Position numbers and translations under genes: made by a program
Shown here: piece by piece, positions 18,241-53,410 of the stretch
Layout of the letters: each line of letters starts with the position of its first letter
Numbering within the stretch: position 1 is the first letter of the stretch
Notes under the pieces: model-generated
Databases searched by the model: none
What the model saw: only the letters and a program-made list of their open reading frames with translations
What the model was told of the DNA's origin: nothing
Origin: Candidatus Hadarchaeum sp.
Lineage (GTDB): Archaea > Hadarchaeota > Hadarchaeia > Hadarchaeales > Hadarchaeaceae
DNA: 64,000 bases
Assembly (NCBI RefSeq): GCF_038871235.1
Contig: NZ_JAVZIN010000001.1
Span: forward strand, 64,001 to 128,000
Direction: 5' to 3'

Positions 18241-18348
18241 TGGTGCGGGGGAGGGGATTTGAACCCCCGAACTCCTTCGAGACCAGCCCCTCAAGCTGGC
18301 GCCTTAGGCCGGCTTTTGAGACCATTGACCTGGCTAGGCTACCCCCGC
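18241..18348 (-). tRNA. tRNA-Leu(GAG) with 20-nt intron at 21/22 (D-arm)
   Basis: GCGGGGG/CCCCCGC acceptor, CCAGC-TT-GAG-GG-GCTGG anticodon arm, long variable arm, GGTTCAAATCC, CCA. Confidence 0.92.
18305..18324 (-). other. tRNA-Leu intron 21/22 (TGGTCTCAAAAGCCGGCCTA)
   Basis: BHB GGTC-AA^T...GGCC-TA^A; excision restores GGTCAAAGGCG. Confidence 0.85.
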
Positions 18349-19537: not shown

Positions 19538-19659
19538 GGTTGGCAGCGAACCGGGCTTCCCTTTGGCTTGCGCACAAAAGTACAACCCGATACGCAGGCG
19601 AGCTTGACTTCCGGGATCTGACGAGACCGGGTATTTCCTCGCCGCTATGGCCGCCAACC
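19538..19659 (-). rRNA. rrf: 5S rRNA
   Basis: GGTTGGCGGCCATAGCGGCGAGGAAATACCCGGTCTCGTCAGATCCCGGAAGTCAAGC...GCTGCCAACC, about 122 nt with paired ends. Confidence 0.92.
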
Positions 19660-47716: not shown

Positions 47717-47829
47717 TGGTGGGCCCGGAGGGCTTCGAACCCTCGACCACCCGGTTTCCCCGGTCAACCTATGAGCCTCGCCCAACTTCTTCAGTTGTCG
47801 GGCGCTCCACCAGGCTGAGCTACGGGCCC
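47717..47829 (-). tRNA. tRNA-CAT (probably Ile2, agmatidine) with introns at 30/31 and 37/38
   Basis: GGGCCCG/CGGGCCC-A-CCA; removing 47777-47798 and 47756-47769 gives CCCGG-CT-CAT-AA-CCGGG; Ile vs Met identity inferred from the GGGCCC acceptor. Confidence 0.87.
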
Positions 47830-53226: not shown

Positions 53227-53378
53227 TGGCGCCGGGGAGAGGACTCGAACCTCTGACCGCTCGGTTGCTGTGCCCAGACGTGTCGTCTTTTTTTATTGAG
53301 GTTCGTTCTTCATTCACATCCGGTTTAACAGCCGAGCACTCTACCTACTGAGCTGTCGGGCCGCAACGGAACCCCGGC
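53227..53378 (-). tRNA. tRNA-Asn(GTT) with introns at 8/9 (16 nt) and 37/38 (60 nt)
   Basis: GCCGGGG-T[53355-53370]AGCTCAG...CTCGG-CT-GTT-A[53266-53325]A-CCGAG...GGTTCGAGTCCTCT-CCCCGGC-G-CCA. Confidence 0.88.
53355..53370 (-). other. tRNA-Asn intron 8/9 (TCCGTTGCGGCCCGAC)
   Basis: strict BHB: GC/GC, CGGG/CCCG, bulges GT^T and AC^A, inner CCG/CGG. Confidence 0.85.
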
Positions 53379-53410
53379 ATTTCCCCGGCACTTCTTACTT
53401 TTCCACCGAA

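Follow-up and report, generated by a model that had tools for sequence, protein, structure and literature searches.

A tRNA-Asn(GUU) gene with two inserts lies on the minus strand of the window, by which we mean the whole 64,000-nt stretch of DNA analysed here (Candidatus Hadarchaeum sp., contig NZ_JAVZIN010000001.1, positions 64,001 to 128,000). The gene occupies 53378-53227, with an insert of 16 nt between tRNA positions 8 and 9 and a canonical insert of 60 nt. Exon 1 (GCCGGGGU, 53378-53371, U8 at 53371) holds tRNA positions 1-8 and is invariant in 30 of 30 orthologues; the 5' exon is thus only 8 nt plus leader, as an earlier note on this DNA had stated. It is followed by the 16-nt insert UCCGUUGCGGCCCGAC (53370-53355), which can be parsed as U-CCG-UUG-CGG-CCCG-AC. 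Rfam alignment and the in-silico splice coordinates place exon 2, with tRNA positions 9-37 (D arm, anticodon stem and anticodon GUU), at 53354-53326, A9 being 53354. The canonical 37/38 intron (53325-53266, 60 nt) has its own BHB with the central helix CUGU:ACAG, and its core is kept in the orthologues. Exon 3 (53265-53227) comprises tRNA positions 38-76, including the 3' acceptor strand CCCCGGC (53237-53231), G73 (53230) and an encoded CCA. Read from A9, the RNA is GCUC AGUAGGUA GAGU ... CUGUUA-(60 nt)-A-CCGAG ... AGAGG UUCGAGU CCUCU CCCCGGC G CCA, and exon 1 pairs with CCCCGGC as the acceptor stem in the product spliced in silico.

Upstream of exon 1, on the same strand, lies the leader element GUGCCGGGGA (53391-53382), which is complementary to U65-C74 of the 3' end. 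Its core GCCGGGG (53389-53383), preceded by GU, is a copy of acceptor bases 1-7. The core is separated from the real 5' end by the spacer AAAU (53382-53379), whose first A is also the last base of the duplex with the 3' end; the spacer measures 1-4 nt across Hadarchaeota tRNA-Asn loci. A TATA-like box CTTATGAA (as RNA CUUAUGAA) at 53418-53411, minus strand, is the presumed promoter, its TTAT starting 39 nt upstream of the real +1. The interval 53355-53390 marked in the earlier note runs from the intron through the 8-nt exon 1 and the spacer to the upstream copy.

Standard gene finders fail on this gene. ARAGORN reported four tRNAs in the window and missed the tRNA-Asn gene, and the match of the Rfam tRNA model was confined to 53238-53354 (model positions 9-63), scoring 30.6 bits where the cut-off is 29. 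The Rfam match starts exactly at A9 and skips 61 nt in the anticodon loop, corresponding to the 60-nt intron plus position 38. Removal of both inserts in silico led ARAGORN to call a 76-nt tRNA-Asn(gtt), which agrees with the proposal that excision restores a normal acceptor/D-arm junction, and no gene was called when only the canonical intron was removed and the 8/9 insert was kept. Neither ARAGORN (36 genes) nor Rfam (36 matches) detected a second tRNA-Asn in the genome, which measures 1.2 Mb at 94.75% completeness.

Together with the flanking exon bases, the 8/9 insert forms a 3-4-3 BHB motif, in which the central helix C3G4G5G6:CCCG lies between the 5' bulge G7-U8-U and the 3' bulge A-C-A9. 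The outer helix G1C2:G10C11 has 2 bp, and the inner helix CCG/CGG carries a UUG loop. A cut after the second base of each 3-nt bulge would join G7-U8 to A9-G10, and the same rule yields the 37/38 junction. Folded on its own, the 56-nt region adopts the central and inner helices and the 3-nt 5' bulge, but it is no more stable than its shuffles (z +0.95, 161 of 200 shuffles at least as good), so the single sequence is not evidence for the motif and the support is comparative.

A DNA search of 41 related genomes found a match in 39 and returned 30 orthologous loci, 17 of which have an insert of 15-21 nt at the same place and 13 of which lack it. When the BHB was laid on the 17 orthologues, 96.9% of the pair cells were standard, versus 25-41% with the partners slid by 1-3 columns, and the covariation score was reached by none of 500 shuffles. 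The inner helix varies between 2 and 5 bp among the loci and contains three pairs with compensatory changes (CCG/CGG, CUGC/GCAG, CCGC/GCGG, CCACC/GGUGG). The four central pairs are 100% paired in the 17 sequences, with G-U wobbles in 3. The exon bases of the outer and central helices do not vary, so these helices can show only G-U wobbles and no two-sided covariation; the 2-bp outer helix is structurally possible, without covariation support. RNAalifold, with no structure supplied, returned the central helix, the 3-nt 5' bulge and the first two inner-helix pairs. Covariation in the 17 orthologues together with RNAalifold therefore upholds the earlier description of the 16-nt insert between U8 and A9 as a strict BHB with these helices. 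In addition, a pattern search of 66 genomes of the phylum revealed the 8/9 arrangement in 25, and the reversed-pattern control in 0 of 66. These 25 loci are 24 tRNA-Asn genes and one tRNA(CAU) gene (genome G038), and two of them deviate from the strict 3-4-3 form, L153 by a G6xA mismatch and L159 by an offset inner helix. The insert is patchy even within the genus of the window (4 of 8 genomes), which suggests that the intron is gained or lost quickly. We regard the 8/9 insert as very probably an archaeal BHB intron in tRNA-Asn, and its site is a new position within a known kind of intron.

The position of this intron creates a conflict. The BHB shares bases with the 7-bp G+C-rich acceptor stem and consequently could not form in a plain precursor. 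ViennaRNA partition functions computed without the leader gave a probability of 0.99 for the acceptor stem and 0.00 for the BHB central helix in 17 of 17 loci, consistent with the view in the earlier note that the BHB and the mature acceptor stem are mutually exclusive. With 30 nt of native leader, the mean probability of the BHB rose to 0.47 at 37 °C and 0.52 at 70 °C (range 0.01-0.99 over the 17 loci) and that of the acceptor stem fell to 0.03-0.05. Some loci kept a low BHB probability despite the leader (L023 0.01-0.03, L026 0.05-0.11, L004 0.08-0.26). Shuffled leaders (20 per locus, mononucleotide) gave a mean BHB probability of 0.17, with individual shuffles up to 0.9; this control is only moderately clean, as G-rich shuffles still pair with the C-rich 3' strand.

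The fold of the precursor itself points to the same leader element. The MFE of the 171-nt precursor is -64.8 kcal/mol (z -2.86), and in this structure the leader element is paired with UCCCCGGCGC of the 3' end. Measured as the longest contiguous pairing of the 3' end with the final 24 bases of the leader, the duplex has 9-12 bp in the 17 orthologous loci with the insert and 8-13 bp in 8 further loci of the phylum with the insert. Overall, it measures 8-13 bp in 25 of 25 Hadarchaeota insert loci, compared with 4-7 bp in the 13 loci without insert. For one of the insert loci, L021, which is a perfect tandem GCCGGGGU-GCCGGGGU, the length was read by eye, the regex parse giving 3 bp. In many loci the duplex reaches over G73, C74 and even the CCA. 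Several loci carry variants of the element. In L012 (GGUGCCGGG) and L023 (UGGCGCCGG) it is shifted outward onto G73-C74-C75-A76 and the inner bases are lost, the upstream element of L023 being without bases 6-7 and base 7 of L012 being A; in L152, L153, L158 and L162 it reads UGGCGCUGGGG, with U as base 3 opposite G70. These variants retain pairing with the 3' end rather than identity with the exon, suggesting that the element is selected for pairing and not as a copy. Because the 3' acceptor strand is invariant in tRNA-Asn, classical covariation is not available as support, and the evidence for the pairing comes from changes on one side and from its recurrence in independent tRNAs.

The promoter distances also differ between the two groups. 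From the start of the TATA-like box to +1, insert-bearing loci measure 36-41 nt (median 39, box in 21 of 23) and insert-less loci 26-34 nt (median 32, box in 9 of 13), so that the box lies about 7 nt farther from +1 in the insert-bearing genes. This longer distance would agree with transcription beginning just ahead of the leader element, which would then be part of the transcript. A regex scan for tandem 5'-strand copies, which demands an uninterrupted T arm and may thus miss genes, found none at the other tRNAs of this genome, tRNA-Asn alone having one. As a feature, this leader "anti-acceptor" is well supported as a conserved partner of the 8/9 intron.

Similar arrangements were found in other tRNAs and in other phyla. 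A collection-wide pattern scan matched at least 119 stretches, mostly chance matches in G+C-rich bacteria, and filtering left at least nine useful archaeal tRNA loci; the archaeal match L033 is not a tRNA. A class-level search found an 8/9 insert in tRNA(CAU) in 3 of 301 Nitrososphaeria genomes, and the scan and this search together gave at least eight tRNA(CAU) genes with the insert in Nitrososphaeria and Bathyarchaeia. Among the matches listed, the acceptor strand is copied upstream in eight of eight such tRNA(CAU) loci (7-9 bp, spacer 2-14 nt), and the best leader duplex in 11 intron-less tRNA(CAU) genes with the same acceptor stem is 3-7 bp. For the Nitrososphaeria and Bathyarchaeia loci, adding the leader eliminates the predicted acceptor stem, yet the probability of their weak BHB stays near 0 and this motif is not predicted. 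In one Hadarchaeota family, tRNA-Lys(CUU) has a 21-nt intron at 9/10 in five of six genomes, so that both the acceptor sequence and the intron position differ from the tRNA-Asn case. Its BHB has the central helix C4C5C6G7:CGGG, the bulges U8-A9-A and A-A-G10, and the inner helix GUAGC/GCUAC, which is replaced by GCAGC/GCUGC in one genome. In five of five tRNA-Lys(CUU) loci, YGGGCCC abuts G1 and pairs with C66-G73, and the BHB probability at 70 °C is 0.43-0.75 with the leader and at most 0.01 without it. Taken together, the leader element is present in 33 of 33 loci with an 8/9 insert (three phyla, among the matches listed) and in five of five with a 9/10 insert, and it is absent from 24 intron-less counterparts. 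The loci compared are kin rather than independent, and duplex length does not by itself separate the two groups fully, since the weakest positives have 7 bp and so do the strongest negatives, the latter with wobbles.

The genome encodes the enzymes expected to act on such a precursor. A single EndA gene of 179 aa was identified (PF01974, 115.5 bits), whose product aligns gap-free to the M. jannaschii alpha4 enzyme 1a79 (1.1e-36) and is without the 9-aa N-terminal loop of A. pernix alpha; neither a beta subunit nor a fused two-unit or three-unit form was found in this genome. Among the 41 relatives, exactly one EndA match is present in 34, two matches in 2, and none in 4 genomes of 71-88% completeness. 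Judged by its sequence, the enzyme is alpha4-like, with a single catalytic subunit of about 180 aa. RtcB (PF01139, 601.7 bits) and an archaeal RNase P RNA (198 bits) are also encoded. Up to four inserts occur within one tRNA-Asn gene among the relatives, that is, in a lineage with a single alpha4-like endonuclease.

Based on these results, we propose with a probability of roughly 0.7 that the locus is a functional, doubly interrupted tRNA-Asn(GUU) gene with a true BHB intron at 8/9, whose leader element resolves the competition with the acceptor stem. As a mechanism, such an anti-acceptor is plausible and modestly favoured by the sequences and the folding models. In the proposed pathway, the leader element, lying 1-4 nt before +1 and repeating the 5' acceptor strand, would capture the 3' acceptor strand, often together with G73 and CCA, and the single 179-aa EndA would cut after U8 and before A9, the exons then being joined by RtcB. 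The leader element, followed by the local BHB hairpin, would be transcribed and folded at the outset. The 3' strand, emerging about 130 nt later, would then take the free leader element, and the BHB would not be invaded. After cleavage, the 8-13-bp helix would hold the piece of leader and exon 1 on the tRNA body; exon 1, with its 8 nt, would otherwise depend on 2 bp to stay in place, so the helix may serve as a tether. Upon ligation, the real 5' strand would displace the decoy, and RNase P would remove the leader. In the folding model, when the RNA is spliced in silico with the leader kept, the 3' strand stays on the leader (0.84) rather than on the real acceptor (0.13), and its release should therefore depend on something outside the model, such as tertiary structure, RNase P or trimming. 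Splicing itself, the order of the steps, the tethering and the displacement of the decoy are what we infer from this arrangement. If the endonuclease is strict, it would require the full 3-4-3 motif and, through it, the decoy.

Alternative readings of the upstream copy were considered. The intron could be real and the copy a passive by-product of its origin, for instance through tandem duplication of the first 8 bases, with no role of its own. The sequences give this idea some footing, as GCCGGGG is repeated exactly, at a distance of only 1-4 nt, in most Hadarchaeota loci, L021 is a perfect tandem and the copy in tRNA-Lys(CUU) abuts the exon. Moreover, the loci are kin, so co-occurrence could equal linkage, and because the first 15 bases of tRNA-Asn and tRNA(CAU) are identical, transfer of a 5' module from one gene to another is conceivable. 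However, the element persists over six families' worth of divergence in leaders that otherwise diverge freely, and no intron-less orthologue has retained it, not even in the same genus. A mere relic is also hard to reconcile with the variants L012, L023 and the four C-to-U loci, which lose identity with the exon and keep at least 8-9 bp with the 3' end, or with the recurrence of the element beside another acceptor sequence and another intron position in tRNA-Lys. Furthermore, folding does not lead one to expect the BHB without the element. We therefore consider a passive by-product unlikely.

A role of the element mainly in timing 5' and 3' processing, for instance by holding back RNase P, CCA trimming or aminoacylation up to the completion of splicing, with the BHB forming independently, would fit the extension of the duplex over G73, C74 and even CCA in many loci. 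It would also fit the inhibition of a bacterial RNase P binding step by pairing between the leader and 3' RCCA, as described in the abstract of PMC9433436. Such a role does not account for the specific association of the element with introns that draw on acceptor bases, and it is compatible with the anti-acceptor reading, to which it could be added; as the main function it appears very improbable. Still less credible is that the mature tRNA begins at the upstream GCCGGGG, with a longer intron (spacer, downstream copy and 16 nt) removed, the case that the earlier note had named against itself. Although pairing of the upstream copy with the 3' acceptor strand is perfect in the MFE fold and the copy lies about as far from the TATA-like box as +1 does in intron-less genes, the base after the copy is A, G or U depending on the locus, with no conserved U8, and the element itself is defective in L023 (bases 6-7), L012 (base 7 A) and four loci (base 3 U). 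The downstream exon 1 is invariant in all loci, the conserved BHB sets the 5' cut after the downstream U8, and by eye no 3-4-3 BHB could be drawn for the alternative junction. An invariant downstream exon and a variable base after the upstream copy mean that the latter cannot supply positions 1-8; it proved to be a conserved partner of the intron instead of the 5' end. Hardly any weight can be given, likewise, to a decaying or non-functional gene, or to an insert retained in the mature RNA. The low Rfam score and the failure of ARAGORN on the raw gene could be read in that direction, but this is the sole tRNA-Asn found in the genome at 94.75% completeness, its exons are invariant or nearly so over 30 genomes, the structure of the insert is kept by compensatory changes, and the product spliced in silico is a canonical tRNA-Asn. 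A permuted or split gene was rejected, the upstream element being a copy of the 5' strand and not a 3' half.

Non-canonical archaeal BHB tRNA introns were reportedly treated by Marck & Grosjean 2003 and Sugahara et al. 2008, and Tocchini-Valentini 2011 is said to be another main intron catalogue. The excerpts of PMC4090602 name the non-canonical positions 20/21, 22/23, 25/26, 29/30, 30/31, 45/46, 53/54, 56/57, 59/60 and 3/4. Similar to the hBHBh' introns described there, the present intron has two 3-nt bulges round a 4-bp helix with flanking helices and co-exists with a canonical intron, and the likeness would extend to position-independent EndA recognition and RtcB ligation. Unlike those catalogued introns, as far as the excerpts list them, it lies at 8/9 (9/10 in tRNA-Lys) and its BHB is built from acceptor-stem bases; in addition, exon 1 has 8 nt and a leader element outside the tRNA is always present. 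The parts of the literature searched, a scope outside which the main catalogues lie, contain no 8/9 or 9/10 intron and no leader copy of the acceptor strand. The earlier suggestion that the position is unreported thus stands for the literature searched, in which 8/9 is unnamed, and does not extend to those catalogues.

The nearest published positions are the 3/4 introns, given for Thermoproteales in the excerpts of PMC4090602, and a "Possible intron 3-31" in a Thermofilum tRNA-Pro in the accessible supplement of PMC8450103. As in the present gene, the acceptor region is interrupted in these cases and standard tRNA detection is broken; according to the excerpts of PMC8450103, tRNAscan-SE 2.0 extends candidates by 60 nt for introns near the ends. 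The texts searched make no mention of a leader copy of the acceptor strand for the 3/4 or 3-31 introns. In the accessible part of the PMC8450103 supplement, the tRNA-Met genes of cultured Nitrosopumilus have no 8/9 intron. With split and permuted tRNA genes, as the excerpts of PMC3218864 and PMC3293823 present them, the locus shares G+C-rich flanking sequence that pairs: there, leaders and trailers pair, hold the pieces and present the BHB to EndA. In contrast to those genes, everything here is in cis in one transcript and the leader lies outside the BHB. Here the leader is predicted to sequester a competing 3' acceptor strand and to tether an 8-nt exon, a further difference from what the same excerpts describe. 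The leader/trailer pairing of split tRNAs would nevertheless be the closest analogy in logic. For one Hadesarchaea genome, Kaneta et al. 2018 (PMC5829648, in excerpts) report an alpha4-type EndA and marked disruption of tRNA genes. Its main text, as far as accessible, gives neither intron positions nor leader features, and its supplement may list an 8/9 intron. The same excerpts assign an "L3" loop to the Hadesarchaea EndA. The present enzyme does not have the 9-aa A. pernix alpha loop.

Non-canonical tRNA introns are usually seen as self-contained BHB cassettes that can be placed anywhere. From the present locus it would seem that, where an intron overlaps the acceptor stem, the folding competition can be won only with the help of a second, extra-genic element. 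This may be extended to a general rule, for and against which we see even chances: BHB introns that borrow acceptor bases (8/9, 9/10 and perhaps 3/4) would exist only with a cis leader anti-acceptor that captures the 3' strand, enables the BHB and tethers the exon. Under such a rule, the element would have arisen or spread in at least three tRNA species and at least three phyla. The rule, if true, would impose an obligatory order, with splicing before 5' maturation; it would make such introns rare because two features must arise at once, and it would indicate how a strict alpha4-type endonuclease could process heavily interrupted tRNA genes. It would further constrain models of the gain and loss of tRNA introns, and the locus would offer a natural example of a predicted strand-exchange switch in RNA processing. 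The arrangement also provides a new annotation signature for tRNA genes that are now missed or truncated, both ARAGORN and Rfam failing here.

The canonical 37/38 intron has features of its own. Box C/D RNAs carry the consensus RUGAUGA (box C) and CUGA (box D) on either side of a guide. The 60-nt intron includes CGAACCUC, the complement of T-arm G50-G57. Inspection by eye found a C-like AUGAAGA and no clear CUGA, the complementarity to the T arm being 8 nt only, and no box C/D RNA matched in the region in Rfam at E up to 10. Among the sequencing runs listed as containing this stretch, none is registered as RNA. Contigs of a relative were found in four runs, two labelled "metatranscriptomic" but probably DNA and two of DNA; they contain both inserts and no joints and are uninformative on splicing. 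The best metagenome matches to the DNA are hot-spring metagenomes.

The canonical intron at position 37/38 of the tRNA-Asn(GUU) gene comprises 60 nt (window 53266-53325, minus strand) and is conserved phylum-wide in its core, which reads …GGAUGAAGARCGAACCUC…GACGAC…. The stretch CGAACCUC inside this intron is the exact complement of G50-G57 in the T-arm of the same tRNA-Asn, and the intron could act as a degenerate C/D-type guide or as a folding element. A search against Rfam gave no match for the canonical intron as a guide. The genome encodes Trm56, and Cm56 therefore needs no guide.

In the tRNA-Asn orthologues at loci L152, L153, L026, L029 and L017, extra inserts of about 28 nt each were found in the D arm and in the T loop. 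The genes at L152 (genome G043) and L153 (genome G045) hold four inserts each, at 8/9, in the D arm, at 37/38 and in the T loop, and span 207 nt as far as G73. The tRNAscan-SE 2.0 paper (PMC8450103) mentions archaeal tRNA genes with as many as three introns. At L015, L024 and L025, three tRNA-Asn loci without the 8/9 insert, the final 4-5 leader bases (for example GGCG and AUGGU), immediately before +1, the first base of the tRNA proper, can pair with G73-CCA, which would add a few base pairs to the acceptor stem.

In one Hadarchaeota family, tRNA-Lys(CUU) loci (L192/L196, G025:C3:302109-302232; also L195 and L197-L199) carry a 21-nt intron at 9/10, and the region of the anticodon loop holds additional inserts. 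These loci have a TTTTTAAG box at about -36, and a second TATA-like motif (GCTTTAT) stands immediately 5' of the decoy, the leader copy of the 5' acceptor strand, only about 14 nt from +1.

The splicing endonuclease EndA is encoded in the window's genome by a single gene of 179 aa (G000:C10:38604-39140, corresponding to L150:1474-2013, minus strand), adjoining a tryptophanyl/tyrosyl-tRNA-synthetase-like ORF. Throughout the order one EndA of about 175-240 aa is found per genome (exactly one in 34 of the 41 related genomes), despite the heavily interrupted tRNA genes.

Allowing introns, ARAGORN also placed intron-containing genes for tRNA-Trp(CCA) (18244-18348; Rfam 47.0 bits) and tRNA-Met(CAU) (47720-47829; Rfam 45.1 bits) on the minus strand of the window, and a 5S rRNA gene (19538-19658) lies beside tRNA-Asp.
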